Shown: one piece after another, positions 32,258 to 63,253 of the stretch
Layout: each line of letters begins with the position of its first letter
Position numbering within the stretch: the first letter of the stretch is position 1
Assembly: GCA_963719085.1 (NCBI GenBank)
Contig: CAVRAL010000001.1
Span: 448,001-512,000, forward strand
Direction: 5' to 3'
Source: a candidate division FCPU426 bacterium
Lineage (GTDB): Bacteria > Oederibacteriota > Muellerivitia > Muellerivitales > Muellerivitaceae
Length of the DNA: 64,000 nt
Translations under genes and position numbers: made by a program
The notes under the pieces: generated by a model
The model's database searches: none
What the model was told of the DNA's origin: nothing
What the model saw: only the letters and a program-made list of their open reading frames with translations

Positions 32258-34474
32258 ATGCAAATCAATTCCCTGGTTCCCGGCTGTTTCCATCTGGAAG
32301 GCCCCACCTGCAGCGCGCTGCTCGGCAGTCCGCCTGAGATTTTAAAAGTCCTGATCAAAAACAAAAAGTCCGTCCCCCAAGTCGGTATTTTGCCCGATGT
32401 TTCCCATAAAAATGGTGTTTCCCAAATGGCGTTTGAGTTTTTGGGCTACTGGTTTCTTTTCGTGGATCAGGGCTATCAAAAGGGAAAAAAATTCCGCATT
32501 TTGGGCACCCCGGCCCTTTGCGAAAGGCTTTACCACATTCTTCGCGTCACGCTTCTGGGCCCCAGCCGCGAGGAGATGAAAGAATGGGGCCTGAGCAAAA
32601 GCCGCGTGGACACCCTCGTCAAGATGTCGGAAGGTTTGGCCTTGAAGCGGGGCGAAAAAGTCCTGGCGGTGGAAGAGCTTTTCGAGTTCATCCATTTGCC
32701 GGAAGAGGACGACAGCCTTTTCGTGCCGATTTTTTCCGATTCCAAAGATTATATGATTAAGCGTCTGGGGGAAAACCGGTATCAAATTCTGTCCCAGGGC
32801 GAAACCCTGGAGTTGGACTTAAACTTCGAGGGCGAACAATCGCCCCCCCTGATTGACTTGACCGGTGAGGTGGAAAAGCCGGAAGCTCTCCGGGTGAAGG
32901 TTTTGGGTTGTTACACCGGGTTTGACCCGGAAGGGCCCACCACGGGCATGCTTTTTTGGATCAACGGAAACGGCTTTCTCGTCGATTCGCCGGCGGGAAT
33001 CGGGAAGTATCTTAAACAAGTGGGTGTTTCCAAAGACCGTTTGACCGCCGTCATTCAAACCCACGTGCATGACGACCATTGCGCTTTGAGCGAGCTGCTT
33101 TTGTCCGAGCAGGTTTTAACCATCATCTCCACCCGTGAAATTTATGAGTGCATGGTCTTGAAGGTGGCCAATGTCATCGGGGAATCGACGGAGATGGTGA
33201 AGTCCATGATGCAATTCGTCGAGGTTATTCCGGGAAAAACCTACAACCTTTACGGCGCGGCTTGGGAATTTTTTTACACGGTTCATTCCATCCCCACGGT
33301 GGGATTCCGGGTGACGGTCCCGGACGAGAAGGGAAAAACCCACACGATTCTTCATTCCAGCGATTTGGACCATTTTGAGGGCATGCAGCAGTTGGTGGAC
33401 TCGGGCGCCATCAGCCAGGAACACATGGACCGCATGAAGGGGTTGGTCCGGGGAGATGAAAGGCTGGCCATGATCGACGCCGGCGGCGCGCCGATCCACG
33501 GGAAAACCTCGGATTGGGACGGCATGATCGCCCAATACCCGGACACTGAATTTCTCTTCTATCACGTGAACCCTTCCAAAGTGAACGCTGAAAAATACCA
33601 GGTGGCCCGGCCGGGTTGGGGCAAGACTTTTTTAGCCGAGCGCCAGTTTCCCCAATCGGTTTATAACGGCGTGGTGCAGGCCTTGAGATTATTCGAGATC
33701 AAAGACCAGTCTTGGACCAATATTTTGCTGTCCCAAGGCCAGGTGGTGGAATATCCGGCCAAGCACGAGGTCGTGCGCAAGGGCCAGGAAGGGGATTCTT
33801 TTTATTTTATCCTTTCCGGCAATTTGGACGTTTTGGATCCGGAGAACAAAAAGGAACCGCTTTTGGCCACCTTGGAAAGCGGCGATTTTTTTGGCGAGAT
33901 GTCGATCATCAACCGATCCAAAACGAACGCCACGGTGGTAAGCCGGACGCCGGTCATTCTTTTTAAACTTTCAGGCAGCTTGTTCTTGGAATTCGTGGAG
34001 AAAAACGAGCTCAAGGAAAATTTTTCCAGCCTCTGGAAAAGACGCCCGCTGATTTCCTCGGTGGCCATTTTCAGGGATCTGGATCCCACGGCCAAGCATG
34101 AGATATCCCTTTTGGCCAAGAGCCAGTCGTTTAAAAAAGGCGAATTGATCATGCGGCAGGGAAGCAAGACCGAGGAGTTTTACATCATTTCCTCGGGGAC
34201 CGTGGAGATTGTGCGTAAAAACGAAAACGGCAAAGTGGTGGTTTCCACTGAATTGAGGGCCGGGGAATTTTTCGGGGAAAACGTGGCGATTGGATACGTG
34301 GATAAACGAAACGCGTCGGCTTTGGCTTTAACCGACGTGACCACGCTGGTCATTTCGGGCCGGGAACTGCGCACGCTGGCCAAGCGGATGCCGGTCCTGC
34401 GCCATCAATTGCACGTGATCATGAAGCGGCGCGGAGTGACGGAAGAAGTTTTGGAAAAAGGCGTGGTTTTGTAG
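32258..34474 (+). CDS. Metallo-beta-lactamase-fold hydrolase fused to two cNMP-binding domains
   Basis: THVHDDH, HSIP, SSD, YH ligands; two FYxIxSG...FFGE cassettes. Confidence 0.82.
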   Translation: MQINSLVPGCFHLEGPTCSALLGSPPEILKVLIKNKKSVPQVGILPDVSHKNGVSQMAFEFLGYWFLFVDQGYQKGKKFRILGTPALCERLYHILRVTLLGPSREEMKEWGLSKSRVDTLVKMSEGLALKRGEKVLAVEELFEFIHLPEEDDSLFVPIFSDSKDYMIKRLGENRYQILSQGETLELDLNFEGEQSPPLIDLTGEVEKPEALRVKVLGCYTGFDPEGPTTGMLFWINGNGFLVDSPAGIGKYLKQVGVSKDRLTAVIQTHVHDDHCALSELLLSEQVLTIISTREIYECMVLKVANVIGESTEMVKSMMQFVEVIPGKTYNLYGAAWEFFYTVHSIPTVGFRVTVPDEKGKTHTILHSSDLDHFEGMQQLVDSGAISQEHMDRMKGLVRGDERLAMIDAGGAPIHGKTSDWDGMIAQYPDTEFLFYHVNPSKVNAEKYQVARPGWGKTFLAERQFPQSVYNGVVQALRLFEIKDQSWTNILLSQGQVVEYPAKHEVVRKGQEGDSFYFILSGNLDVLDPENKKEPLLATLESGDFFGEMSIINRSKTNATVVSRTPVILFKLSGSLFLEFVEKNELKENFSSLWKRRPLISSVAIFRDLDPTAKHEISLLAKSQSFKKGELIMRQGSKTEEFYIISSGTVEIVRKNENGKVVVSTELRAGEFFGENVAIGYVDKRNASALALTDVTTLVISGRELRTLAKRMPVLRHQLHVIMKRRGVTEEVLEKGVVL

Positions 34475-34637
34475 GTTTTTTTGTCTGATTTTTTAGTGTC
34501 AGAGGATTATCAAAAAGTCTAAAAATCGAACAAAGATGTCATTTTCCGTTTAACCTGTCCATTTAATCGGTTACTGAAAATACCCGTAATTCCTTAAAGA
34601 GTTTGATAAAGCGATTCACGGAAAAAGGGCATAGAAA

Positions 34638-36911
34638 TTGCCCTTTCTTCCATGGCCGGTGAAATTTTATTGCCCGGATCCCATGTTTAATTTCAGGAAA
34701 AGGTTTTCACGAGCGATGCTAAAAACGATTCAACAAATTATAAATTCACTTTATGCCGCTTTTTATTCGCCGGCTTTGGGAATGATTTTTTTCCTGATGG
34801 TCTGGCCTTCCTTTGGCTTTTCGGCGCCGTCCGCATTGACCGTTTCGGGAAACCGTATCGTTTCGTCCGGTGGTTGTACTTTTTTACTGAGGGGCGTGGA
34901 CGTGGACGGCCTGGAATTTTCGCCCGGCGGATACGGCCCGCCCAGCGGAAATAACGGGAGCACTTTGGCGGTGGTGGGAGAAGCGGTCACGGTTTGGGAT
35001 TCCAACGTCATCCGTCTTCCGCTCAACCAGGATTATTGGTTCGGGTGTAATGGCGCCAACGCCGCTTCCTATCAACAAGCGGTCAGCAATATCGTCAATT
35101 ATTGTTCCGCCCAAAATGTTTACGTTATTTTGGACCTGCACTGGTCGGGAACCTATAGCGGTACTTCCGCCACCAGTCCTTCGGGATGCAGCAGCGGGAA
35201 CGGATGGGGAAGCTCCAACGCGCAACAAGTGATGCCGGACTGGAACTCGGTGACCTTTTGGGGATCGGTGGCCACCGCTTTTTCCAATAATCCCGCCGTT
35301 CTCTTTGACCTCTATAACGAACCGCATCCGGATTCCAGCTTGGGCTCGCCGGGTGATTGGCAAGTTTGGCAAAATGGAGGCGCGACCAGCAGCACCCCCA
35401 GCCAAACGCCCGGGATGAAGAATCTTTTGAACGCCGTTCGGGCCACCGGCGCCAATAACATTTGTTTAGTGGGCGGTTTGCAATACGCCTATGACCTGTC
35501 CCAAGTAGACACCTATCCCGTCACCACTTCCACGAATGTCGGCAACGGGGTGGTTTATTCGGCCCACATCTATATCAACAAGGGAACACCCGGCCAAAGC
35601 ACTTGGGATCCCTATGTGACGACGGCCACCACCAACCATCCGGTCTTTATCGGGGAATATGGGCCCAGCCTGAGCTGCAATACGGATAGTTCGACCTTTG
35701 ATACGACTTTCTTCTCCTGGGCGAATGGTACCAACAGCAAAAGCTATGTTTATGGCGCCACCGCTTGGTCGATGACAACGGGTTCTTGCCCGAACCTGCT
35801 TTCGGATTGGAGCTTTGACACCACCAGCTGGGGTGCGGCGGTTAAAAATTGGCTGGCCACGCCGATTCCCACTTGCGGTTCGAGTCCTGTCAATACGGCC
35901 ACGCCCACGGTGACGCCGACCAAGACCCTTACTCCCACGGTTACGGCGACCGTGACCTCGACGCGGACCCTCACCCCCACCGCGACCTCGACCCCAACGC
36001 GTACCTTGACAGCCACACCTACCAAAACCCTGACCGCGAGCCCGACCTTCACGGCGACCGTGACCAGTACCAACACTTTAGCTTCCACACCGACTCCGAC
36101 CGTGACCGCCTCCCCTACCGCTACGAGGACGATGACCGCTACGGCGTCCGCTACCGCCACAAAGACAATGACCGCCACGGTAACACTGACCCGGACTCCA
36201 ACGGTGACCGCCACCTTGACCGTGACGAATACAATCACTTGGACACCTACCATCACCGACACGCCGAACGCCAGTTTCACCCCCAGCTTTACCCCGACGA
36301 TCACGCTGAGCCCGACCGTGACCGCTTCCGCTACTCCTACGGCGTCCGCTACCTCTACGGGAACAATGACTGCTACGGCAACCCTAACGGTTACGACGAT
36401 CCCGACTTCCACCCCAACCCTGACCGCCTCCGCTACCGCTACCTCGACGGCCACTCAAACCTTAACGCCTCTGTTCACTCCAACCGCTAGTTTCACCTTC
36501 ACCGCGACCCTTGTCCCGACCGCTACGGTGACTTTGACCCCCGTTCCGACGGGAACGGCGACTTTTTCTCCCACCTTGACCCCCACCGTTTATTTGCCGC
36601 CGACCGCCACGGCGACCTCGGCTTTTGGAGGGATGACTTTTGAGCCGCCTTACCCGAACCCCTCTTTTGGAAATCCAGTAACCTTGTTGGTGAATGTGCC
36701 TTCGACCGCCGCGGTGAAATGTTCAGTTTTCACGACGGCCTTCCGAAAAATATATGATGCGAATCAAACCATTATCGGAAATGGGAAGATGGTATGGAAT
36801 TTGTGTGATACGAGCGAAGTGCCGGTTTCAAACGGGGTTTACTATGTTCGTTTGGAAGTGGACTCGAATCATCCGCAGACCCAGATTTGGAAAGTGTTGG
36901 TATTGAAATAG
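34638..36911 (+). CDS. Secreted GH5 glycoside hydrolase + Thr-rich stalk + T9SS-like C-terminal domain (start may be 34683-34782)
   Basis: IRLPL, ILDLHW, NEP acid/base, HIY, IGEYG nucleophile; (T-X)n ~35890-36620; PYPNP...LVLK. Confidence 0.85.
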
Positions 36912-37264
36912 CCGACTTTTATCATCGGGTTATTTCCCTTATTTTGTCAAAAGACCTACAGGAAGTAAGAAAGCGAACAGTTTTCCGCCCTGTTTCGCCT
37001 CCGAGGCTCACTTGGTTGTTTCGTTCAAATTCCGGATTTATCGATAAACATAAAAAACTATCAAAAAGGTATGGAAATTGCACTTTCATCTAATAGGATG
37101 AATGCGGGTTTTCGCCTTTCTTCAACTATCACTTCACTTTTCCCGCGATAAGCTCGAGATCTTGGTGACGATGTTTCTTGGCTTGACCCCTTGGGGGCCG
37201 TGGTCTTGAAACTTGCCGAGAGACGGACTGAAAAAGTAAATCGTTCCAAGAAAGCTAAAATCGA

Positions 37265-40200
37265 TTGAATTTTAAAATTTTAAAATTTAATTACAGCAAA
37301 AACTCCTTCCTTGGCTTGCTTTGCGCCTTGGCGCTTGGGTTTATGGGGGCGAGTTCCGCTTCGGCTCAAAATATCACGATCATCAGCGATAGCATCACGC
37401 CCGCCAATCCGGCGCCGGGGCAAAGTTTCCAACTCAGCGTCACTTACTGTAATAACCAAAATACCCAATCCGAATGGGAAGTCGCCCTCAGCAGCGCGGG
37501 TACGACGGTCTTGGCTTGCCCGACCAAGAACCAAGTGTTTTTGGTCGACAAGAACGGCGTGAATGTGGACGAATCCGATCCTTGCGCCGGCGCCTCAGGT
37601 TGCAATATGGGCTGGCTCATGACGCCGACGGACGCCCAGACCAGCGGTTCTTGCGTGACCTTCACCCATACCTGGAACCTGACCATGCCGAACAACGCTG
37701 TTTATGGCGGAACCTACAACCTGATCCTGGGCGGAGGGGTTTATTACGAACAGTGCGGAGCGACACCCCAGGGCGGCATGGAAGTCACCATTCCCATCAC
37801 GGTTCCGGTTCCCGCCACTTCGATCCTCAGCACCAGTAAAACGGCCGAAGGTGGAAACGCGGCTCCGGGCGATCTCATTCTTTTTACCGTCAATTATGAT
37901 TTTCTCAACGACACCAGTGGCGGAACCATTACGGATACCGTGCCGGCGGGAGTCACCATGGTTGAAATGGGTCCGGGTGCCCCTGTGGGCGATTCGAGTT
38001 CCGGCGTGGCCCCCGGCTCGACCCTGACTTGGACCGTGCCCGGCAGCGGTACTGAAGCGGAGGGACAGGTTTGGTTTTTGGGCCGGGTGTCTTCGACGGC
38101 GACGGCGGGAACCCTAATCAGCAATACGGCGAAGTTGGCGCTCAACGGAACGGGGTTGACGCAAAACACGAATACGGCCACCTCCACGGTCGGCGGAAGC
38201 GGATTTTCGCTCACCAAAACTCAATTTCCCCAGGCGAACCCCTTGGCCGCGGGGCAGAGTATTCTTTATGGTTTAAGCTACGTGGCCAACGGCTATAGTC
38301 TGCAATGGTACGATTCTTATGACAACGATGGGAATGGAACATTAGGGTCGGGATATGACGGAACGGGTTATACCGACGTTCCGGGCCAAACCACCGGCGG
38401 TTATACGGTCGCCACCGATTCCCAAGGCAATCATTATCTGGTGGCCACCTCGACCTACTCGACCTCGGGCGGGGACTATCCGTTGTACCTGCGCGGCAAC
38501 GGCGAAAATTTATGCGCGGGAACCTATGTGGTGGAAGGCGATGTGCAGATTCCCACGACGGCGCCGGGAGCCAGCGGTGCGAGCGCGGGGGCGGACGCCA
38601 GCATGGTTTTAGCTTACGGCGTCAATGGCGGGGTGACCCAGGCCTACATGGCCTCGATTTCCTTGGACAATGGTCCCGGATATCTCTTTGAGCAAGTCAA
38701 CAACGGAACCTCTTATACCTCGAAGGGCGGACTGACCTCTTATCCGCAGCCGGTCACCATCACGGCGGGAGTTTGGTACACGATAAAAGCCGTAATGACG
38801 GTGACGGCCGCCGGTTGCATGACGCTCACCCAATATGTGTGGGACCGCAATAATCCTTCGTTGGTCGACACCTACACCTATCCCCAGGATTGCACTTTCG
38901 GCGCGAACCTTTGCGCGGATAAATGGCAGCAAGGCTGGCAGGCGGACGCCACCTCGGGGATCGACTGGTATTCCAATTTGAAGTTTGAGCAGGCCGATCC
39001 GATCGTCAACGCCAAACTTTGGGACACGATTCCCACTGGCGTAACCTACACCGGCGAGAATACGACGAATTCCAATTCGGTTCCGGCGCCTACATTCAGC
39101 AACTCAGGCGGGGCCTTGACTTGGAGTTTTCCGGCCACCGTTTATAACCTCCAGGGCTCGGTTTCCTGGTGGGGCAACGTCAGCTGCACGGGCGCCGCCC
39201 AAACCATCATCAATTCCTTCTCCATGGGCGCGCAGGGAGTCAGCACGGCCCTTTCGAATTCAGTGACGGCCATCGTCCAATGCGCTTCGCCCACCCCGAC
39301 CCCGACCCCGACCGTCACGAATACCATTACGCCGACCCGCACCCCGACCCCCACGCCGACCATTACTCCCACGTCCACGCCGACCCCTACCCGCACGCCG
39401 ACCCCGACCCCCACGATCACCAATACCAATACCCCCACGTTCACCCCGACCTGGACCCCCACGCCGACCAATACCCGTACTCCCACGCCGACGCCGACGA
39501 TAACGCCGACGATGACGCCTACCAACACTCCGACGATGACACCCACCAAGACTCCGACCATCACGCCGATCTTCACGAATACTTATACGTGGACGCCCAC
39601 GGTGACTAATACCTTTACCCCCACGAACACGCCTACGCCCACCCCCACACGCACCCCCACCTTAAGCCCGACTCCGACAAATACAGTAACGGCTACTTGG
39701 ACCCCCACTTGGACTCCGACGCCGGTTCCTTCCGCCACCGTTACGCCGACCTTTACCCCGACTTTCACCTTCACGCCGACCTTTACGCCGACTGAAACGA
39801 ATACCATTACCCCGACCAATACCTTCACTGTGACGAATACGGACACCTTTACTCAGACACCCGTTCCTTCGGCGACGGACACCTTTACCTTTACGGTCAC
39901 CAATACGCCGACCTTCACCTTTACCTGGACCCAGACCTTTACGCCGACCCCGACGAATACGCCTCCATTTACGCCGACGAATACCTTTACCCCGACCTGG
40001 ACCTCGACCTTTACGAACACCTTCACGCCCACGACCACTTTCACGCCGACCCCGACCCCGACCCAAACCCCGAGCCCGACTCCGGCCACCTCGGTTCTAT
40101 TCACCAAAAAGGTCAATCCGACCACGGTCTCCGGGGGAGGGATATTGACCTATACCTTGAATATCGACGTTCAAAACAGCCCGTCGACGAATCCGGTAGT

Positions 40201-41383
40201 GACCGATCTGCTGCCTTCCAACGTGACTTTTGTTAAATTTTTAACGGGTAATCCGGCGGTGGCCGGCGTGACGCTTTTAAATGGGGGCGTAACCGAATTG
40301 GAATGGAACCTGTCCACTTTAAGTCCGGGTCAATACTCATTGGGCTATGAAACCCAGGTCAATAATTTCGTGACCGGCGGGAGCACCATCGTGAACCAGG
40401 CGGTTTTTGACTCTTCCAACCTGAGCCAACCCTTGACGGCGGTGGCCAAGGCGCTGGTTTCGGGAACCTACACGGTCAGTATCGATATTTATAACGGGGC
40501 CGGTGAAATCGTCAAAACCATCCCCATCCAACAATTCTCCGAGCCCGTTCAAAATATCGCCATTGGCAGCACGAATATCATCGGGAATTCCAGCAATCCG
40601 GTGACGATCTTCTTTGGCACTATCCCGATCGGGATTTGGGACGGGACGAATAACAACCAGGAGCCCGTCTTGAACGGCAATTACTACGTCAAGGTGGACA
40701 GCGTGGATCCCATGGGCAACTTGACCAGTGTCACTCAGATCGTGGCCGTCAGCCGGACGCTCTACACGATCACGGCCAATATCTACAATGAGGCCGGTGA
40801 AATTGTTAAGCACCTTCTCGCCTATTCCACCACCCCCGGGCAGGCCTTGATCACGGGGGCGACTTTGTCCACGCCGATTTTAAAACCCTCGGCGGATCCC
40901 TCGCCAGGCCAGCCCACGCAATTGACCATTACCCTGAATACGGGCGTGACCATGACCTGGGACGGGACTTCGGATTCGGGAAGCCTGGTACAAGGCGGAC
41001 AGTATTACATTGAAATCAGTTCCAACGACGGCAAGGGAAGCTCCAGCGAGTTGACCCAAACCATCGTGGTCACGGGAACCGGGTCCACGGGTATCACGAG
41101 CGTGGCCGCGTCCCCCAATGAATTAACTTTTGCCAATGGCACCACATCCACGACCTTTAAAGTGAAAGCTTCCATGCCGGTGTTCGTGGAGGCGATCATT
41201 TACACGGTGGCGGGCGAGAAGGTGGCCGTGGTCGGGAATGATCCCGCCAATCCAAACCAAAGTTTGCCGTGGGACGCCAGCAACCACGCCAGCGGCCTTT
41301 ACATCGCCGTGGTGACCGTGCGGGACGCGTCCTCCAACGGAATTATCGCCCACAAAACTTGCAAGTTCGTGATTCTTCGATAA
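37265..41383 (+). CDS. Large secreted DUF11/Ig-like protein with Thr-Pro stalk, two FlgD-like Ig domains and T9SS-like C-terminal domain
   Basis: Signal peptide ending ASA; K...PGDxxxY/F and TDxxP DUF11 motifs; IYNxAGEIVK...WDGT twice; SPN...IYTVAGE...SGLY...VILR. Confidence 0.75.
39288..40092 (+). repeat. Hexamer-periodic (acNNNN)n coding repeat encoding ~270 aa of (Thr-X)n
   Basis: [19 protein letters not shown]...; similar tracts at ~35890-36620 and ~44244-44900. Confidence 0.9.
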
Positions 41384-41434
41384 AGGCCGTTTGATGAGTG
41401 ACGGTCATCTTAGGGTTCACGGATTAAAGCCATT

Positions 41435-44400
41435 TTGAAAAAACAAAAATTAAAATCGATTCAATTGTTCGTTTGGGCCGCCGGATTTTGTTTTTTCCTT
41501 TCAGCCGCCGACGCGGCCACCAATATCCCCTCGCAGGCCTGGAGCCGCGACATCAACGCCGGGGGCTATACGGATGGGGCGCCGATCGGCGGTTTTGGCG
41601 CGGGAACCATGACCTGGGATTTTTCGGGGAATTTTTATCTGGGCCGCCTCAACATCGCCACCGCGGCCGTCACCACGGGCAACGCCCCCTACGCGATTGA
41701 CGCCAACGCCCATTTCTATATGTACCAAAAACTTTCGGGCCAAGCCGCGGTCGAGAAAATGCTCAACGCCGCCACCTTGGGATCGGGGGAGGCCACCTAT
41801 TACTCCCTTTTTCCAAAAGCTTGGGTGGATTATTCCGGCCCGACTTTTCCCCTGGAAACCAAAGTCACCCAGTTCTCGCCGATCATTCCCGGGGATTACC
41901 AGCGAACCAGTTATCCTGAGGGGATTTATGAGTGGGACGTCACCAACAGTCAGGCGGTCTCCTGCGATTTCGCGGTGATGCTGACCTTTGACAATACCTT
42001 CGGCGGCACCAACGCGGCCGTCACGACCTCCGGAAGCAATGTGGGATTGGTATTAACCCGCAATACGGGCAACGCCTCCAGCCCCGCCCAGGGTGAGTTT
42101 TCTTTGGCGTCCCAAACCTCCACTGGCGTGACGGTGACCTATGAGTCGGCGGCGGCATTGACCACCCTTCAGACGGCTTTCGCGGCTTCGGGTAACCTGG
42201 CGGATACCACGGGCAACAACACGATCGGCGCGATCGCTTTTAAGGTGACCCTGGCGCCGGGTCAATCGGTGAAAATCCCAATTGTGCTGGCTTGGGATAT
42301 TCCGCAAGCTAAGCCCGGCACGGGAGCCGCTTGGTACCGCGAATACACGAAATACTATGGCGGCGTCGCCACCGGGCGCACCGGGTTTAATTCCGGGGCA
42401 ATCGCTTTTGACGCGCTCAATAATTACGCCACCTGGGAAGCTTCCATCGACAGCTGGCAATCGGGCATCCTCACGGGCAATTATCCCGACTGGCTCAAGC
42501 AAATGCTTTTCAACGAGCTTTACTATTATTTTACCGGCGGAACCATGTGGGAAGCGGGGCAGGTGGGCAGTACGGCTTTCGACGCCAAACCCAGCATGTT
42601 CAGCAGTTTGGAAAGCTACATTTATGATTTTTATGGGACATCGGACGTGCGTTTTTACGGCTCTTGGCCCTTGGCCTTGCTTTGGCCCAATATCGATAAA
42701 CAGGAAGTCCAGCAGTTTTGCGACAGCGTGACCACGGGCACCAGCTTGATCGGGGTGGCCCCGCTTTCGGCCGCCACCTGCGCCCATGACATCGGCGACG
42801 ATAACGGGGTCTTCACCGAATGGAACGCTTACGTCTACCGCGATTCCACCACTTGGAAAGATTTGAACTCGAAATTAGTGCTGATGGTTTACCGGGCCTG
42901 GGAATTGACGGGGAAGACCGACACGACTTTTCTCAATTATTGCTGGCCGGCGGTCCAGGCGGCCATGACCAAGGTCCACGGCGAGTGCGACGCCAACGGG
43001 CTGCCCTACTCCAACGGCATCGACCAAACTTATGATGACATGGGGCTGTATGGCGACACGGCTTATTGCGGAAGCTTGTTTTTAGCCGCTTGCGAGGCGG
43101 CCCAATCCATCGCCACGGCCGAAGGCAATAGCGCCTTGGCCACCACTTACGGAACCTGGCTGACGACGGGACAGACGGGATTCAATACCTTATGGAACGG
43201 AACTTATTACAACATTGATAACGGAGCCACCGACACGGCCCAAAACCGGATCATGGTGGATCAATTGGCCGGGGAATGGTATGCCAAAGCCTTGGGGCTT
43301 CCGGGAATCGTCAGTGACGCGAACGCCAACAGCGCTTGGCAGGTGATCCATGACAATAACTGGAAAAAATTCGATGGGGGCGCCCATGGCGCCGTGAATG
43401 TCATGACGGCGGCCGGCGCGATTGATACGACCTGGCCCCAAAGTCAGGAAGCCTGGGTGGGGGTGAGTTGGGGGGCGGCCGCGGGAATGATCCAACAGGG
43501 AATGTTCACCCAAGGCACGGATTTGGGCTATAGCCTTTACAACAGTATTTGGAATTTGGGGCAGTTCTGGTTTAGAACGCCTGAAGCCTGGGAGACCGGG
43601 CTCGCCAATTTCCGGGCCCCCTATTACATGCGGGCCAACGCCATTTGGGCCGTGAAGCACGCTTACGATATCGCCCCGCCGCCCTGCGGGCTTTTGACCT
43701 GCACGGCCACGCCCACCTTTAGCCCCACCCTCACCCAAACCCCCACCGCCACGGTCAATCCTTGCGCTTATATTTATGAGGCGGTGGATTGCGGTTCGGC
43801 GGCCCAGACGATTATCGGCGGCGTGACTTGGCTGGCGGATAAAGCCTATACGGCGAGCGGCTATGGTTATGTGACGGTGGGAACGACCGCCACCACGGCT
43901 ACCGCGATCACCGGTTCCGGCGCCCAACAGCCTATTTACCAAAGCGAGCGTTACGCCCCGACGTTGGAATATAAATTCACGGTCCCGAACGGGACTTATC
44001 AGGTGACGATTAAAAACGCCGAGCAATATTGGACGGCGCCGGGGAAGCGGGTCTTTAACGTGGCCATCAACGGCGTCACGGTTTTAAACAACTTGGATAT
44101 TTTTTCCCAAGTCGGCGAATTCGCGGCGGATGACCACACCTTCACGGTTTCGGTGACGGGAGGGCTCATTGACTTGGTGGAAGCGGCCAGCGCGGATAAC
44201 GCCGAATTGACCGGCGTTGAGATTGTCAGTGAGGCGCCTTGCTCTCCCACCCCTTCGCCTACTCAAACTTTCACCCCGAGCCCAACGGTTACGCCCACAC
44301 CCACCTGGACGGTGACTAAAACCATGACCATGACGCCCACGGTTTCACCGACCGCCTCCGCTAGCGCTACGGCGTCCGCTACCGCTTCGGCGTCCGCGAC

Positions 44401-45190
44401 TTCGACGCCGACCCTGACCGCTACAGTATCCGCCACGGCTACGATTACCCAGACGCCTCAGTTCTCGCCGACCGCGACCGCTACTTCGACCTTAACGGCG
44501 ACCCTGACCGCGACGGTTTCCGCTACCGGGACCCCTTCCATCACGGCGACTTCCGCCTTTTCGCCAACCGCCACCGTTTCCCCCACGAGGACAATGACCG
44601 CTTCGGCAACCGGCACTCCGTCATTGACGGCTACCCCCACGACGACCCCGTCCTTCACTAAGACGGTTACATTGACGGTGACGCCAAGCGCGACTAAAAC
44701 TCCAACCCTGATCCCCACCGCTTCCCCTACGGGAACAATGGCCGCTTCGGCGACGCCGACCGCTTTGGCGACAGCGACCCCTTCGCCGACGCTCACAATG
44801 ACGCCGATTCCTACCCAAACCGCCTCGGCCACCGCTTCCCCGACGCCCTTGCCGACGAATTCTCCCACGGGGACCCTGACAGCGACCCCGATCCCCACGA
44901 TGTCGTTCACCGATATATCGGCGCCTTATCCCAACCCCACTTCGGGCGGGCCGGTTACGATTCAATTGAATTTATCGGGGTCTTATCAAGTCAAGTGGGA
45001 CATTTTTACGACCGCTTTCAGGAGAATCGCGGGCCAAAGCAGCAATTCCTTGCCGGGGAATACTTTGATTTGGAATTTAAAGGACCCGGAAGGCCAGGAA
45101 GCGGCCAATGGCATTTATTATTGGCGAGTTGAATTAAAAGACGCCGGCGGCAGTCACACCCGTCTGGTCAAGATTCTTGTCCTGCGATAA
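41435..45190 (+). CDS. Secreted GH116 beta-glucosidase + malectin domain + Thr-rich stalk + T9SS-like C-terminal domain
   Basis: GAPIGGFGAG, LFNELY, SLESYIY..YGTSDV, HDIG, WKDLNSK, DQTYD, FRTPEAW, YMRA; malectin YQSERY..GKRVFNV; PYPNP...LVLR. Confidence 0.88.
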   Translation: MKKQKLKSIQLFVWAAGFCFFLSAADAATNIPSQAWSRDINAGGYTDGAPIGGFGAGTMTWDFSGNFYLGRLNIATAAVTTGNAPYAIDANAHFYMYQKLSGQAAVEKMLNAATLGSGEATYYSLFPKAWVDYSGPTFPLETKVTQFSPIIPGDYQRTSYPEGIYEWDVTNSQAVSCDFAVMLTFDNTFGGTNAAVTTSGSNVGLVLTRNTGNASSPAQGEFSLASQTSTGVTVTYESAAALTTLQTAFAASGNLADTTGNNTIGAIAFKVTLAPGQSVKIPIVLAWDIPQAKPGTGAAWYREYTKYYGGVATGRTGFNSGAIAFDALNNYATWEASIDSWQSGILTGNYPDWLKQMLFNELYYYFTGGTMWEAGQVGSTAFDAKPSMFSSLESYIYDFYGTSDVRFYGSWPLALLWPNIDKQEVQQFCDSVTTGTSLIGVAPLSAATCAHDIGDDNGVFTEWNAYVYRDSTTWKDLNSKLVLMVYRAWELTGKTDTTFLNYCWPAVQAAMTKVHGECDANGLPYSNGIDQTYDDMGLYGDTAYCGSLFLAACEAAQSIATAEGNSALATTYGTWLTTGQTGFNTLWNGTYYNIDNGATDTAQNRIMVDQLAGEWYAKALGLPGIVSDANANSAWQVIHDNNWKKFDGGAHGAVNVMTAAGAIDTTWPQSQEAWVGVSWGAAAGMIQQGMFTQGTDLGYSLYNSIWNLGQFWFRTPEAWETGLANFRAPYYMRANAIWAVKHAYDIAPPPCGLLTCTATPTFSPTLTQTPTATVNPCAYIYEAVDCGSAAQTIIGGVTWLADKAYTASGYGYVTVGTTATTATAITGSGAQQPIYQSERYAPTLEYKFTVPNGTYQVTIKNAEQYWTAPGKRVFNVAINGVTVLNNLDIFSQVGEFAADDHTFTVSVTGGLIDLVEAASADNAELTGVEIVSEAPCSPTPSPTQTFTPSPTVTPTPTWTVTKTMTMTPTVSPTASASATASATASASATSTPTLTATVSATATITQTPQFSPTATATSTLTATLTATVSATGTPSITATSAFSPTATVSPTRTMTASATGTPSLTATPTTTPSFTKTVTLTVTPSATKTPTLIPTASPTGTMAASATPTALATATPSPTLTMTPIPTQTASATASPTPLPTNSPTGTLTATPIPTMSFTDISAPYPNPTSGGPVTIQLNLSGSYQVKWDIFTTAFRRIAGQSSNSLPGNTLIWNLKDPEGQEAANGIYYWRVELKDAGGSHTRLVKILVLR

Positions 45191-45227
45191 TTTTTTCACC
45201 GGATGAATTTGACGATATAATAAGCCA

Positions 45228-46250
45228 ATGACCACCCACTCCTCTCCTTTGCGCGTTGGTGTAATCGGCTTAGGCCAAATCGCCCTGAAGGCCCATTTGC
45301 CCGGATACGAAAAAGCCGAAGGCTGCCGCCTTACGGCCCTCTATTCTTCCCGCGAAAACGTCGCCCAAAAAGTGGCGGTTCAGTATGGAATCCCCACTAT
45401 TTTCACCGATTGGAAAAAACTTCTGGCCTCTCCCGAGGTGGACGCGGTCTCCATTTGTACCCCCAATTTCACCCACGCCCCGATTACTTTGGAAGCTTTA
45501 AAAAGGGGAAAGCATGTTTTAGTGGAAAAGCCCATCGCCATTTCAACGCGGGACGCGGAGGCCATGATCCGCTTGGCGGGTAAAAAAAGACGGGTCCTGA
45601 TACCGCACCATAATATGCGGTTTGACCCGGCGGTCCGCACCGCGCGCAAACTCCTCGCGAAGGGAACCATCGGGAATGTTTTCGCTTTCGCTTGTTCCTT
45701 GGCCCATCCGGGCCCCCAAATCTGGAACCCGAACTCCAAATGGTTTTTTAACATCAAATCGGTTGGGGGCGGGGCTTTGATGGATTTGGGCGCCCACATG
45801 TTCGACAGCCTTCGATTTTTGCTTCGGGAGGACCCCAGCGAAATTCACGCCACCGTCCCCAAGTCGGAAAAAGGGAAGGGCGGTGAATCCCATTGCGCCT
45901 GCCTTTTAAAATTCAAGGGCGGCTCCGTGGGAACCATGACCTTGAGCTGGGCCGACACGGATTATCACAACCGTTTTTATTTTTTCGGGTCCAAGGGAAC
46001 CTTGTTCCTGAATTTGGGCAATGGGGAACCTTTGGTTTTGGAACTGAGAAAAGGCTCGGGGCGATTTTTGCCGCCTTTGGCCAAGGACGCTTTTAAACCC
46101 TCCATCTACCAACACTTCGTGGATTGCGCCGTGACCGGGCAAAAGCCTTCGGTCACGGCGGGGGATGGGCTTCGGGCGCTTCAAGTCATTCAGGCCGGTT
46201 ATGAATCCATCCGCCGAGGAATTCCCGTTTCCACCCGGTTTTTAGACTGA
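45228..46250 (+). CDS. Gfo/Idh/MocA-family oxidoreductase
   Basis: GVIGLGQIA, CTPNFTH, VEKP, GGGALMDLGAH. Confidence 0.92.
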   Translation: MTTHSSPLRVGVIGLGQIALKAHLPGYEKAEGCRLTALYSSRENVAQKVAVQYGIPTIFTDWKKLLASPEVDAVSICTPNFTHAPITLEALKRGKHVLVEKPIAISTRDAEAMIRLAGKKRRVLIPHHNMRFDPAVRTARKLLAKGTIGNVFAFACSLAHPGPQIWNPNSKWFFNIKSVGGGALMDLGAHMFDSLRFLLREDPSEIHATVPKSEKGKGGESHCACLLKFKGGSVGTMTLSWADTDYHNRFYFFGSKGTLFLNLGNGEPLVLELRKGSGRFLPPLAKDAFKPSIYQHFVDCAVTGQKPSVTAGDGLRALQVIQAGYESIRRGIPVSTRFLD

Positions 46251-46252
46251 AA

Positions 46253-59579: not shown

Positions 59580-59607
59580 GGCGTCCCCCAGGGGGGCGCC
59601 TATTTTT
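59580..59607 (+). terminator. GC-rich hairpin / weak terminator between fliE and fliF
   Basis: ggcgtcccc...gggggcgcc followed by tattttt. Confidence 0.45.
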
Positions 59608-59626
59608 GCGTGAGGACGAGGAATCC

Positions 59627-61282
59627 TTGAATAATTTTTTCCAACAATTAATTCAACAGCTGCGGGATGTTTGGGGTCGTTTTAACAATACCCAAAGGGC
59701 CCTTTTAATCGCCATTCCCGCCCTGGTTTTGATCCTCTTTTTGTCCCTTATTCTTGTCTCGACCAAGTCGAAATACGAGATCTTATATTCCCATCTTTCC
59801 CAAAAAGACGCGGCGGACGTGACGACGGAGCTGAAGAAAAACAATGTTCCTTACCGGCTGGAGTCCAAGGATGATTCGGTGATTGTCCTGGTTCCGTCCG
59901 AAAAAGTTTATGACTCCCGGTTGGCCTTGGCGGGCGAAGGCTTGCCCAAGGGCAATGGGGTGGGCTACGAGATATTCGATCAGACTAAATGGGGGACCAC
60001 CGATTTTACCCAGAAGGTGAATTATAAGAGGGCGCTCGAAGGGGAATTGCAGCGCACGATCGAAAGCTTGCAAGAAATCGACGCCGCCCGCGTCAATATC
60101 GTGATTCCCGAACCCGAGCTTTTCACCGAACAAGAAAAGCCCACCACGGCTTCGGTGGTGTTGCAACTCAAGCCTGAGGCGGAATTGAAAAAAGAACAGG
60201 TGCGGGGAATCGTTCATTTGGTGGCGGCCAGCGTGGAAGGCTTGAAGCCGGAGAACGTCAATGTGATCGATGGAAATGGCAATATCCTCTCGAACTTCAT
60301 CCAGGAAGAGGCGGAAGACAATAATTCGGATTCGGTGACCGACGGGTCGAACCTCACCCAGCAAGCCAAATTGACTTTGCATCAGATGGAAGTTCAGCAG
60401 AATTTCGAAAAAGACCTGGAACGCAAAATTACCACCATGCTGACCAAGGTTTTGGGCAATGACCGCTTGGCGGTTTCGGTGTCCGCAGAGCTTGATTTTG
60501 ACAAGGCGGAAAACGACTCGGAAATTTATGAGCCTGTGGTGGATGGCCAGGGCATCGCCCGGTCCACCCAAACGAAGAAAGAACAATATGTGGGCGACGG
60601 ATACCCCTCCAATGTGGTGGGCGGGGTTCCGGGCACGGATTCCAATATTCCCGGTTACCAAGCGGTGGTCGGCAACGGCAATAATTCCCAATATTCCCGC
60701 GAGGAGAATACGACCAATTACGAGATCAACCGCACCGTCAAGCATGACGTGGTGGCGCCGGGCTCCCCCAAGCGTATTTCGGTGGGCGTGTTTGTCGATA
60801 ATTTGCAGCCGCAACAAGTGGATGACATTAAGACGGCTGTGGTTGCGGCGGCCGGTTTGGATTTGAATCGGGGAGACCAGGTGGCGGTCGAGAATATGCC
60901 GTTTGATAACTCTCAGGAATTGGCCAGCATGAAGGAGAGCCAGATGGAGACTCAACAAAACTTTTATCTGTCGCTGGGCAAGATCGGATTATTGGTCTTG
61001 ATGGTTTTAGGCATCCTGCTTTTCCTGAGGTCCCTGTTAAAGCCCAAGCGGGAAAAGAAATACGTGGACTCGCCGGATGACCTGGACATGGGCGAGACGA
61101 TGCCCATGCCCCAAGTGGAAGACATTATTACCAATGATATCTCGCCGGAAGAATTGGCCCGAGCGGAAGCCGCCCGGGAAGCCAAAAAGCGCGAGGCGAT
61201 TCGTTTGGAAGTGGCGGATTTGGCGAACAAGCATCCTGAAAATGTGGCTCAAATTATCAAGAAATGGCTCTCTGAGGAGTAG
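59627..61282 (+). CDS. fliF: Flagellar MS-ring protein FliF
   Basis: GYEIFD, RALEGEL.RTI, ASVEGL, PGTDSN, NYE, RGD; two TM segments; IKKWL. Confidence 0.95.
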   Translation: MNNFFQQLIQQLRDVWGRFNNTQRALLIAIPALVLILFLSLILVSTKSKYEILYSHLSQKDAADVTTELKKNNVPYRLESKDDSVIVLVPSEKVYDSRLALAGEGLPKGNGVGYEIFDQTKWGTTDFTQKVNYKRALEGELQRTIESLQEIDAARVNIVIPEPELFTEQEKPTTASVVLQLKPEAELKKEQVRGIVHLVAASVEGLKPENVNVIDGNGNILSNFIQEEAEDNNSDSVTDGSNLTQQAKLTLHQMEVQQNFEKDLERKITTMLTKVLGNDRLAVSVSAELDFDKAENDSEIYEPVVDGQGIARSTQTKKEQYVGDGYPSNVVGGVPGTDSNIPGYQAVVGNGNNSQYSREENTTNYEINRTVKHDVVAPGSPKRISVGVFVDNLQPQQVDDIKTAVVAAAGLDLNRGDQVAVENMPFDNSQELASMKESQMETQQNFYLSLGKIGLLVLMVLGILLFLRSLLKPKREKKYVDSPDDLDMGETMPMPQVEDIITNDISPEELARAEAAREAKKREAIRLEVADLANKHPENVAQIIKKWLSEE

Positions 61283-61287
61283 CTTTC

Positions 61288-62307
61288 ATGGCGAAGTCCG
61301 ATAAAAAAGTCGCGTTAACCGGCGAGCAAAAGGCCGCTGCCCTTTTAATTACACTGGGCCCGGAACTGGCTGCCAAGGTTTATCAGCACTTAAAAGAAGA
61401 GACGGTCGAGCAAGTCACCTTGCAAATCGCCAATCTTCGGCGCATTACGCCCGAGGAAAAAGATTCGGTGATGCAGGAAGTGATGAATATCGCCGCCGCC
61501 CAGGAATATATTTCCCAGGGCGGGGTGGAGTACGCGCATGAGATTCTGGAAAAGGCCTTAGGCGCCAACAAGGCGATGGAAATCATCAACCGTCTGCAGG
61601 GTTCCCTGCAGATGACGCCTTTTGATTACATCAAAAGAACCGATCCCCAACAGCTCCTGAATTTCATCCAGTCCGAGCATCCCCAGACCATCGCCTTGAT
61701 CCTGGCCCATTTAACCCCGGACCATGCCGCGATCATTTTGGGCGCCTTGCCGGCGGAGATTCAAGTGGATGTGGCCACCCGCATCGCGATTCTGGACCGC
61801 GCGGCGCCGGACGTGGTCATGGAAATTGAGCGGGTTCTGGAACGCCGGATTTCGTCCATCTTCACCCAAGAGTTCACCGCCGCTGGCGGCGTGCGGGCCT
61901 TGGCGGAAGTCTTGAACCGGGCCGACCGTTCGACCGAAAAGGCCATTATGGAAAAACTGGAAGAACAGAATCCCGAATTGGCCGAGGAAGTCAAGCGCCT
62001 CATGTTTGTCTTTGACGACTTGATCAATTTGGACAACCGCACCATCCAGCAGGTTCTGCGCGAGGTCGACGCCAAGGACTTGGCTTTGGCCTTGAAGGGC
62101 GCGAAAGAAGAAGTGAAGGACCACCTGCTCAAGAACATGTCCAGCCGCGCGAAGGCCATGATTTTGGAAGACATGGAAGTGATGGGGCCGGTTCGCTTGA
62201 AGCACGCGGAAGAAGCCCAGCAGAAGATCGTGAACGTGGTTCGCCAGCTCGAGGAGATGGGCGAAATTGTCGTCGCCCGCGGCGGCGAAGAAGAAGTGAT
62301 GATTTAA
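61288..62307 (+). CDS. fliG: Flagellar motor switch protein FliG
   Basis: KAAALL, GGVEYA, EHPQTIALILA, MFVFDD, ALALKG, NMSSRA. Confidence 0.97.
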   Translation: MAKSDKKVALTGEQKAAALLITLGPELAAKVYQHLKEETVEQVTLQIANLRRITPEEKDSVMQEVMNIAAAQEYISQGGVEYAHEILEKALGANKAMEIINRLQGSLQMTPFDYIKRTDPQQLLNFIQSEHPQTIALILAHLTPDHAAIILGALPAEIQVDVATRIAILDRAAPDVVMEIERVLERRISSIFTQEFTAAGGVRALAEVLNRADRSTEKAIMEKLEEQNPELAEEVKRLMFVFDDLINLDNRTIQQVLREVDAKDLALALKGAKEEVKDHLLKNMSSRAKAMILEDMEVMGPVRLKHAEEAQQKIVNVVRQLEEMGEIVVARGGEEEVMI

Positions 62308-62341
62308 GTGGCGTTTCCATCGGCAAAGGCGGTTTGAGGTT

Positions 62342-63253
62342 ATGGGCAAAGGTGTTTTATCCGATCGCCAATATCAATATTCGGACCAAGGGTATGTGGT
62401 CGATAACGTTTATTGGCAGGATGAGATCAAGCGCCGTGCCTGGGAAGAGGCGAACCGTCAGCAAGAGGATTTGAAAAGCGCCGGACTGGTGTCGGGCGAT
62501 TTTCAGGCTTTTGTTCCCGAAAGTTTCGAGGGAGCGGTTTCGGCGCCCGTGGCGGCCGAGGAGCCGGCGGTGCCGGTGATCGACGAGGCTGAAGCGACGC
62601 GGCTTCAAGCCGAAGAAACGGCCCGGCAGTTGGAAGCGGCCGCGGCCCTGAAGGCCGCCGAGATTGAGAACGCGGCGAAATTAAACGCCGAAAAAATGAT
62701 TACAGCGGCCACGGAAACGGCCCGGGTTGAGAGTGAGAAAATAAAGGCTGAAGCCGTTGAGGGGGGCCGAAAAGAAGGGCATGAACTGGGCTATCAGGCA
62801 GGCCTTACGGCCGGTCAAGAGGAAGGCAAAAAGACCTATTCCGGCGTGGTCAATGACTTGAACTCGGTTTTTCAAAAGACGGTTGAGGAACGAAAGAAAC
62901 TTTTAGGTGAAATGAAGCCCCTTTTGATTGAGCTCGTGGGCGAGGCTTTGCAAGCCTGTCTTAAAAAAAAGGCGAAGAACGGCGCGATCGTCGTTCACTT
63001 TGTCGAGGAAGCCTTAAAAAAGGCCTTGGGCCGTACCAAATTGATGGTGCATTTAAACCCCGCGGATGTGGAAGCGGTGGAAGCGGAAGTTCAGAATTTG
63101 CAGTTGGCGGTTGGGGCCGGGGAAATCGAGCTGGTGCCGGACGCGCGGATCGAGCAAGGCGGATGCCTGCTGGAAACCGAGGCGGGTTCGGTGGACGCCC
63201 AGATTCCCACGGTGGTTTCGCAGGTGAAGGCCGCTTTAGGCGATGAGGCCTAG
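62342..63253 (+). CDS. fliH: Flagellar assembly protein FliH
   Basis: GxxxG repeats (EGGRKEGHELGYQAG), HLNPAD, GGCLLET..GSVDA. Confidence 0.9.
   Translation: MGKGVLSDRQYQYSDQGYVVDNVYWQDEIKRRAWEEANRQQEDLKSAGLVSGDFQAFVPESFEGAVSAPVAAEEPAVPVIDEAEATRLQAEETARQLEAAAALKAAEIENAAKLNAEKMITAATETARVESEKIKAEAVEGGRKEGHELGYQAGLTAGQEEGKKTYSGVVNDLNSVFQKTVEERKKLLGEMKPLLIELVGEALQACLKKKAKNGAIVVHFVEEALKKALGRTKLMVHLNPADVEAVEAEVQNLQLAVGAGEIELVPDARIEQGGCLLETEAGSVDAQIPTVVSQVKAALGDEA

Follow-up and report, generated by a model that had tools for sequence, protein, structure and literature searches.

In the parts of PMC11285876, PMC4793230, PMC12421860 and PMC12635249 considered here, the secretion system known as type IX (T9SS) is treated as confined to Bacteroidota or to the Fibrobacterota-Chlorobiota-Bacteroidota (FCB) group, with the PorLM motor and the PorKN ring belonging to its core. 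The passages of PMC4793230 place it in Bacteroidetes only, and the Introduction of PMC11285876 lists it as reported or suspected in Fibrobacterota, Ignavibacteriota, Chlorobiota, Gemmatimonadota, Cloacimonadota and Rhodothermota. Here we analyze a stretch of 64,000 nucleotides ('the window'; assembly GCA_963719085.1, contig CAVRAL010000001.1, positions 448,001 to 512,000) from a candidate division FCPU426 bacterium, in which three consecutive plus-strand genes encode secreted proteins that end in related C-terminal domains (CTDs) resembling T9SS sorting signals. The same genome encodes a homologue of the translocon SprA and many barrels of the PorV/PorQ family, and our searches detected no T9SS motor, ring or sortase.

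The C-terminal domain and its carriers

The three genes and their terminal domains, together with a flagellar cluster that provides context, are listed below. Coordinates are positions within the window unless another contig or locus is named; aa, amino acids; GH, glycoside hydrolase family; ORF, open reading frame.

34638..36911, + strand: GH5 cellulase-family ORF, 757 aa (PF00150, 6e-32 in Pfam)
36633..36908, + strand: FTTAFR-type CTD of the GH5 protein (residues 666-757); TIGR04183 14.6 bits against a cut-off of 23
37265..41383, + strand: 1372-aa secreted protein, N-terminal family unassigned; its sole Pfam match is FlgD_ig at residues 1228-1256 (3.7e-8)
41090..41380, + strand: generic 'YTVAGEK'-subtype CTD of the 1372-aa protein (residues 1276-1372), ending in KFVILR; iterated profile i-E 2.9e-13
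41435..45190, + strand: 1251-aa protein of the GH116 beta-glucosidase family, which also has a malectin domain (Pfam)
44906..45187, + strand: FTTAFR-type CTD of the GH116 protein (residues 1158-1251); TIGR04183 15.7 bits against a cut-off of 23
59606..63253, + strand: fliF, fliG and fliH, showing that a flagellum is encoded; outside the secretion pathway

All three proteins have signal-like N-termini, as read from their translations, and all carry a linker of 246-295 aa with a Thr/Pro/Ser content of 61-68%, followed by a terminal domain of about 90 aa that runs to the last residue. In the GH5 protein the catalytic domain (residues 104-380) precedes the linker (405-663, 61% Thr/Pro/Ser) and the CTD; a gene caller placed an alternative start at 34782, which would give 709 aa, and the true start is uncertain. 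The 1372-aa protein begins with a signal peptide ending in ASA-Q, and has its linker at 664-958, internal FlgD_ig-like Ig domains and then the CTD. The GH116 protein comprises an N-terminal domain (48-334; Pfam E 3.9e-47), a catalytic domain (389-740; 1.7e-89), a malectin domain (783-916; 1.1e-23), the linker (925-1170) and the CTD. An earlier note, made from the sequence of this DNA, had described three consecutive secreted proteins with a shared sorting domain, borne on stalks, in a flagellated bacterium. Its CTD boundaries agree with those listed above, the signal-like N-termini and stalk-like segments are present in each protein, and, beyond the flagellar genes in the window, others for the rod, L-ring, P-ring and hook are located elsewhere in the genome. 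Its 'DUF11' label for the middle protein was not borne out, as neither Pfam nor NCBIfam gave a DUF11 match at E ≤ 0.1.

Compared with one another, the tails of the two glycosidases give E 1e-16 / 5.7e-17 (37% identity, about 59 bits) and have in common PYPNP, (V/I)FTTAFR(K/R), NG(V/I)YY and a terminal K(V/I)LVL(K/R), read in the GH5 protein as PYPNP, VFTTAFRK, NGVYY and KVLVLK. The tail of the middle protein (IYTVAGEK ... KFVILR) is a distant member of a different subtype. Compared with the GH116 tail it gives a whole-protein E of 5.9e-4 and no single significant stretch, and in NF033707, the PorU model, the CTD end is matched by residues 1243-1370 of the protein at E 5e-4.

A family profile grown by iteration from the three window tails was applied to the genome (3.04 Mb in five contigs, rated 99% complete). 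The resulting genome-wide count, which the earlier note had proposed, is 70 of 12,708 ORFs of at least 60 aa. Since 66 of the 74 domain matches in these ORFs end within 8 residues of the C-terminus, the recurrence of the tag is more than chance, and the concern that the domain might not be C-terminally restricted does not apply. In most of the eight internal copies the match breaks off near position 80 of the model, which has about 91, so that the last strand is missing. TIGR04183 has 48 matches across the genome, 14 of them above its curated cut-off.

Cargo was assigned by a Pfam scan of 66 of the 70 carriers, the four longest being left out for size. As the earlier note had anticipated, polysaccharide-degrading enzymes are prominent, and 19 of the 66 have a catalytic glycoside hydrolase, polysaccharide lyase (PL) or carbohydrate esterase domain. 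These include GH5 (four), GH8 (two), GH16, GH28, GH30-type (three), GH44, GH62, GH64 and GH116 (two), as well as a pectate lyase, two PL4 domains and a polysaccharide deacetylase. Modules of the CBM3, CBM9, CBM11 or malectin type occur in other carriers; peptidases of the S8 or S53 type number three, and propellers (NHL, SBBP, Kelch or FG-GAP) account for several more. When a crude hydrophobicity test for signal peptides was applied, 56 of the 70 carriers were positive, compared with 457 of 1194 background ORFs; several of the carriers that it missed have obvious signal peptides or are ORFs cut by contig ends. The prediction of at least two CTD subtypes also held, in that by motif the 70 tags divide into 21 FTTAFR-like, 7 YNSAGEF-like and 42 others. 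FTTAFR-type tags are found mostly on carbohydrate-active enzymes (CAZymes). Beyond the query's own, they occur in 40 further protein clusters from metagenomic bacteria, on cargo that includes GH5, GH8, GH9, GH16, GH18, GH64, GH116, S8, S53 and SBBP proteins.

A profile built from 66 tags, which links all of the tags with one another, was searched against the sequences of the PDB. End-to-end matches were obtained to the CTDs of PorU (6za2, 9.3e-9) and PorZ (5m11, 3.8e-8), and to the Flavobacterium johnsoniae substrates bound in the SprA-PorV complex (8glk_D, 2.9e-5; 8glj_D, 2.6e-4). An AlphaFold2 model of the GH5 tag (pLDDT 94.6) contains six strands of at least three residues, as assigned by DSSP. 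In a Foldseek search of the PDB with this model the PorU CTD 6za2 ranked first (TMq 0.77, E 6.4e-4), with PorZ 5m11 (TMq 0.65) and 8glk_D (TMq 0.54) lower down; generic Ig domains were nearly as good, with TMq 0.70 for C5a peptidase and 0.63 for FlgD 3osv. As judged from these profile and predicted-fold matches, the tag is a divergent member of the T9SS type-A CTD / FlgD-Ig fold family, with first and last motifs and a position that are specific to CTDs.

In the region 34300-45400 we counted 8 promoter and 15 terminator sites, compared with 5.4 and 15.8 expected; none stands above chance and no operon was called. The gene upstream of the three (32258-34474) encodes a metallo-beta-lactamase-fold protein of 738 aa in which two cyclic-nucleotide-binding domains are also present. 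On the downstream side (45228 to 47596) there are a GFO/IDH/MocA oxidoreductase and an M78/DUF6782-type putative metallopeptidase. The window also contains tandem DUF1207 paralogues of 301 and 278 aa (1199-2992).

SprA, PorV-family barrels and their distribution

We identified a SprA/Sov homologue of 1948 aa, which scores 231.8 bits with TIGR04189 (cut-off 200) and matches at E 1.1e-68. The profile of its family matches F. johnsoniae SprA (6h3i_A) at 2.6e-52, and the Pfam SprA model (SprA_N) has no match on the protein. The genome also contains 17 PorV-like ORFs, 12 of which are above the cut-off of NF033709, the PorV/PorQ family model (E 7.9e-54). One PorV-like ORF matches PorV (6h3i_F) at 1.3e-8. 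Of the 17, two carry a fused OmpA-type peptidoglycan-binding domain, and fused tetratricopeptide (TPR) repeats are present in about six.

Several PorV-like genes are paired with genes for tagged proteins. Taking 'directly downstream' as within 300 bp on the same strand, a PorV-like gene follows 8 tagged genes, all of the 'other' class (8/42). None follows a tag of the FTTAFR type (0/21, including both in the window) or of the YNSAGEF type (0/7), and no PorV-like gene adjoins the three window genes. Viewed from the side of the barrels, 8 of the 17 PorV-like ORFs lie directly 3' of a CTD gene, compared with 0.48 expected among about 2500 genes (P about 7e-9). Among the matches listed for 11 related genomes, at least 30 tag-then-PorV pairs could be read from the coordinates.

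The FTTAFR-type tags are associated with PorV in another way. Three PorV-TPR paralogues, with mutual identities of 31-44%, each head a cluster that includes FTTAFR-tagged genes, in the order 'other'-tagged protein, PorV-TPR, further genes. The gene after PorV-TPR encodes an FTTAFR-tagged CAZyme in two of the three clusters; in the third, an FTTAFR-tagged NHL protein is encoded one gene later. Complex prediction for one PorV-TPR barrel (L013) with the GH5 tag gave a score of 0.66, against 0.00 for the best control, with contact agreement between runs of at least 80% and partner pLDDT of at least 82; the mark used is reached by 116 of 157 solved complexes and by 2 of 215 mismatched pairs. The predicted contacts on the tag fall at residues 4-10 (EPPYPNP), 33-40 (FTTAFRKI) and 85-91 (last strand). 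As PorV-CTD complexes have already been solved, this result indicates likeness to them and is not proof that this particular pair binds.

Other PorV-like barrels are found in a variety of settings. Some PorV/PorQ-family members lie inside flagellar clusters (contig C1:527000-540000 and C1:545000-556000). Two of these (705 and 548 aa, the larger with an internal tag-like Ig domain) are located between an FlhB-C-like gene and flgF/flgG, flgA, flgH and flgI, and a tagged 493-aa protein and two more PorV-like barrels come after flgD, flgE and an NHL protein. The barrels in the flagellar clusters may be outer-membrane parts of the flagellum, or their placement may be coincidental. A further cluster (C1:748500-758300) encodes a SurA-like peptidyl-prolyl isomerase, a PorV-OmpA fusion (591 aa), TPR proteins of 401 and 661 aa, a 546-aa protein and a PorV-like barrel of 312 aa; its TPR genes give weak, unspecific matches to the PorW/SprE model. 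Two genes upstream of a PorV2-like barrel there is an 810-aa PMT-type (protein O-mannosyltransferase-like) glycosyltransferase (C1:640894-643323, - strand), and one may ask whether O-glycosylation takes place on the Thr/Pro linkers. Contig C5 (226 kb; 49.2% G+C, compared with 53-55% in the other contigs) has a locus (L002:7282-12744) in which a LysM protein of 1103 aa, SprA-like over a short stretch (33 bits), adjoins a weak PorV-like ORF and an NHL protein whose N-terminal part includes a tag-like domain. This contig could be a mobile element or mis-binned.

SprA is widespread among the relatives of this bacterium. Its close homologues, at 42-82% identity, all come from metagenome-assembled genomes, and with one genome per species we recovered 386 relatives. 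The best 76 of these 386 loci belong to bacteria at 44-73% identity, to Candidatus Firestonebacteria (26-29% over the full length), Goldiibacteriota and Coatesbacteria, and to many Elusimicrobiota, including Endomicrobia. When the SprA from a Candidatus Firestonebacteria record was compared with the window's own phylum, 13 genomes there (families f4-f7) matched at 47-100% identity, and we therefore conclude that this phylum, as the genome collection defines it, includes Firestonebacteria. Of the phylum's 99 genomes, 92 have SprA, as do 58 of the 60 of high quality.

In a quick tree of 52 SprA proteins (fast alignment and FastTree, with local supports, a weaker kind, in place of a bootstrap), a single clade with a local support of 100 unites the 34 sequences of Elusimicrobiota, Firestonebacteria, Goldiibacteriota and relatives, the SprA of the present genome among them, and is separate from the 18 SprA proteins with PF14349. 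Elusimicrobiota are split from the rest inside this clade. The genes that recur near sprA in 73 related loci are largely housekeeping genes: a ComF-like phosphoribosyltransferase directly follows sprA in 40 loci, and GAPDH and PGK come next. The tree topology and this synteny fit vertical descent. We also examined 11 related genomes (five Elusimicrobiota, three Firestonebacteria, one Goldiibacteriota and two others), and all 11 contain PorV/PorQ-family barrels above cut-off (6-37 matches each) and matches to the tag profile (7-90 each).

Also found near sprA are a LytTR regulator (15 loci) and a tagged protein of about 1420 aa (14 loci, in the window's family). In the present genome, a tagged, fn3-containing protein of 1499 aa is encoded directly after sprA (L001:7022-11518, - strand), a position kept in 14 related loci. 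A PorU- or PorZ-like role for this protein was considered and set aside, as Pfam, the PDB and the protein atlas gave only fn3-type matches. Directly before sprA (L001:17397-19396, - strand) are a LytTR response regulator and a histidine kinase, and the regulator recurs in relatives that include Firestonebacteria and Elusimicrobiota. It is possible that the 1499-aa protein and the LytTR regulator are partner and regulator of the translocon.

A proposed export route and its alternatives

On balance, and with moderate confidence, we propose that these components make up a reduced type IX-like SprA-PorV-CTD pathway that apparently operates without motor, ring and sortase. Cargo would be exported by Sec into the periplasm and would fold there. 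The CTD of the folded cargo may be recognized by a PorV-family barrel through a predicted surface to which PNP motif, FTTAFR strand and last strand contribute, and the cargo would then pass through the SprA barrel and leave with the PorV-type protein. With the CTD retained, the enzyme would be held at the cell surface on its PorV-type partner, the Thr/Pro linker serving as a stalk; the CTD probably stays on because there is no C25 sortase to cut and re-attach the cargo. FTTAFR-tagged CAZymes might use a common shuttle, the candidates being the PorV-TPR paralogues that head the three clusters, and a private PorV encoded directly downstream would serve 8 of the 42 'other' tags.

The motor, ring and sortase components are likely to be absent, as judged from profile searches. 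GldM, GldK, GldN and the PorP/SprF family model had no match in the genome, and GldL gave a single match at E 0.13. GldM was found in none of the 99 genomes of the phylum. GldK exceeded its cut-off in none of the 11 related genomes, three of which have weak generic FGE-type matches, and the GldN model had no match anywhere, controls included. The FGE-sulfatase fold of PorK was not found in the genome by a search whose control works (3 of 14 control genomes over cut-off). Peptidase_C25, the fold of PorU, reached at best E 0.36 in the genome and was found in none of 30 genomes of the family; the sole part of the PorU model that matches in this genome is its CTD (model positions 961-1095). Among 37 neighbors of four PorV-rich regions, Pfam identified no MotA/ExbB-type motor beside PorV, and ORF clustering of the 73 related loci revealed no conserved T9SS accessory or motor gene near sprA. 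Candidates for PorW/SprE were discarded as uninformative, since they are TPR-type matches only and the model also responds in 13 of 14 control genomes. The divergent T9SS-related pathway suggested in the earlier note is thus supported. Of the machinery that it had proposed to look for, SprA and PorV-family proteins were found and PorU and PorK-N were not. The alternative that it had allowed for, a Bacteroidota relative with a canonical T9SS, does not apply to a phylum that includes Candidatus Firestonebacteria and a genome in which motor, ring and sortase were undetected.

Several observations weigh against the proposed pathway. In Bacteroidota the motor is needed for transport, and a version without it would have no known energy source. 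The negatives for GldL, GldM and GldN come without a positive control, and the models for GldM and GldN responded nowhere, so that diverged motor proteins could be missed. The sole Bacteroidota member of the control set is Bacteroides thetaiotaomicron, which is not known to have a T9SS core. Scoring of the tags, another suggestion of the earlier note, gave a divided result, for despite the 14 matches above cut-off elsewhere in the genome, no window tag reaches the curated cut-off of TIGR04183 (14.6 and 15.7 bits for the two glycosidase tails, and no listed match for the middle protein). The top PDB sequence match of the 66-tag profile is the FlgD Ig domain (3.5e-11), though over positions 18-85 only, and all 17 PorV-like ORFs fall short of the equivalog cut-offs set for PorV, PorQ and PorV2. 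Two secretins are encoded in the genome, and another outer-membrane route therefore exists. Finally, a C25 peptidase of PorU-like length is present in 8 of the 99 genomes of the phylum. The eight genomes belong to families f8, f9, f15 and f23 and none has GldM; their C25 proteins are mostly about 1050-1680 aa long, and PorU-like sortases are thus patchy in their occurrence. Among the 11 related genomes, C25 peptidases are found only in the two listed above as others. In the parts of PMC12635249 considered, energization by GldLM acts via outer-membrane proteins that are disulfide-linked to a moving track. The hub components named there, GldK and GldN, are undetected in this genome, and GldJ, its track protein, was not searched for.

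A first alternative is that the genome encodes a complete ordinary T9SS whose PorK, PorL, PorM, PorN and PorU are too diverged for models trained on Bacteroidota. In its favor, the silence of the GldM and GldN models, even in controls, leaves their sensitivity unproven, PorW/SprE-like TPR proteins are indistinguishable from generic TPR proteins, and PorU-length C25 peptidases are retained in some genomes of the phylum. We consider this explanation unlikely. SprA and PorV belong to the same system, come from the same training taxa and were easily found, whereas the FGE fold of PorK is absent despite a working control and GldK fails its cut-off in all 11 related genomes. In addition, no conserved motor-like gene accompanies sprA in the 73 loci or the PorV clusters examined, and C25 is lacking throughout the 30 genomes of the family.

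Alternatively, the CTD may be no secretion signal but an FlgD-type Ig module acting as spacer, glycan binder or wall anchor, and the enzymes may leave by a secretin-type route, resembling type II secretion, or in vesicles. Pfam labels the tag FlgD_ig in 22 of the 66 scanned carriers and Por_Secre_tail in only 3, which together with the FlgD match, the eight internal copies and the two secretin genes is in line with such a role. A simple Ig module would not be expected, however, to sit at the exact C-terminus in 66 of 74 copies on unrelated cargo families, with the internal copies mostly missing the last strand. T9SS CTDs match the profile from end to end, whereas FlgD covers the core alone; the tag co-occurs with SprA and PorV in 11 of 11 related genomes; and tag-PorV adjacency is far above chance. 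These observations make this explanation quite improbable in our view. It is very doubtful, finally, that each tag and PorV-type barrel form a self-contained cargo-anchor pair in the manner of type-B CTDs with PorP/SprF, SprA being uninvolved, for despite the eight CTD genes with a PorV-like gene directly downstream and the 30 or more such pairs among the matches listed for the 11 related genomes, all 21 FTTAFR tags, both window ones included, lack such a gene, no way is known in which a barrel of the 14-strand type could let a folded enzyme of 700-1200 aa through, and SprA is kept in nearly all high-quality genomes of the phylum.

The reduced SprA-PorV-CTD pathway might also be placed in a wider evolutionary frame, which we offer tentatively and regard as possible rather than probable. 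A self-sufficient, motor-less pathway of SprA, PorV and type-A-like tags would be ancestral to phyla outside the FCB group (Firestonebacteria, Goldbacteria and Elusimicrobiota), with private PorVs for many cargoes and a shared PorV-TPR for the FTTAFR type. The translocon would then be older than Bacteroidota, and PorKLMN and PorU would be later additions tied to gliding and covalent attachment.

Comparison with known systems

NCBI family models already fire on these proteins, giving for example 'PorV/PorQ family protein [Elusimicrobiota bacterium]', and the parts are therefore already annotated in databases. In a literature search that took in a minority of the subscription journals, no paper among the listings and passages considered reports SprA, PorV or tags of the T9SS kind for Elusimicrobia, Firestonebacteria or Omnitrophota. 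In the passages of PMC7031533 covered, Goldbacteria, Firestonebacteria and Elusimicrobia are mutual nearest neighbors, Firestonebacteria and Elusimicrobia are described as largely lacking cellulase and flagellar genes, and T9SS is not mentioned.

If the proposed pathway is correct, a translocon, its shuttles and about 66 tagged proteins that exist without motor, ring and sortase would amount to a natural knock-out of those parts. This would bear on the minimal machinery for SprA-mediated transport, on what energizes the release of cargo, and on which arose first, secretion or gliding. It would also explain how uncultured flagellated members of this group in soil or peat could display many cellulases, hemicellulases and pectinases on their surface.

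The closest described system is the T9SS of Bacteroidota (Sov/PorV/PorU/PorKLMN in Porphyromonas gingivalis; SprA/PorV/GldKLMN in F. johnsoniae). In both cases a Sec signal is combined with a terminal beta-sandwich of about 80-90 aa that bears PNP, G-x-Y and K-x-x-x-K/R motifs (TIGR04183 / PF18962), SprA/Sov and PorV/PorQ-family barrels are encoded, and the cargo includes CAZymes, proteases and adhesin-like proteins. Unlike the Bacteroidota system, the one studied here has no detected PorK/N ring, PorL/M motor, PorP or C25 sortase. Its SprA is about 450 aa shorter (1948 aa compared with 2403 aa), with Pfam SprA_N silent on it, and its PorV paralogues are many, with OmpA or TPR fusions among them. 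Its host has a flagellum and stands outside the FCB group, and the window tags score below the curated CTD cut-off.

The T9SSs reported or suspected in other FCB phyla resemble this system in having T9SS-type tags and core proteins outside Bacteroidota, with some of the tags on glycoside hydrolases. They differ in lineage, the present one belonging to the group of Firestonebacteria, Goldbacteria and Elusimicrobiota. Genes for type-B CTD proteins are directly followed by the gene for a cognate PorP/SprF-like outer-membrane barrel, and the tag-PorV pairs recall this arrangement, a tagged cargo gene preceding the gene of the barrel that would hold the cargo at the surface. Here, in contrast, the tags are type-A-like and the partner is of the PorV/PorQ family, the PorP model having no match in the genome. 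The Ig-like domain of the flagellar hook cap FlgD (PF13860) shares with the tag its fold and a detectable sequence similarity; FlgD matches the core of the tag (positions 18-85) alone, and the N-terminal domain of FlgD is lacking from the tagged proteins. In this genome FlgD itself (136 aa; C1:545475-545882, L136:476-883) consists of N-terminal and tudor parts with no FlgD_ig in Pfam, while FlgD_ig-like domains are abundant on the secreted proteins of the same genome. The SprA clade, the multi-copy PorV barrels and the CTDs are shared by genomes of Elusimicrobiota and Goldbacteria, which lie outside the FCB group to which published T9SSs belong.

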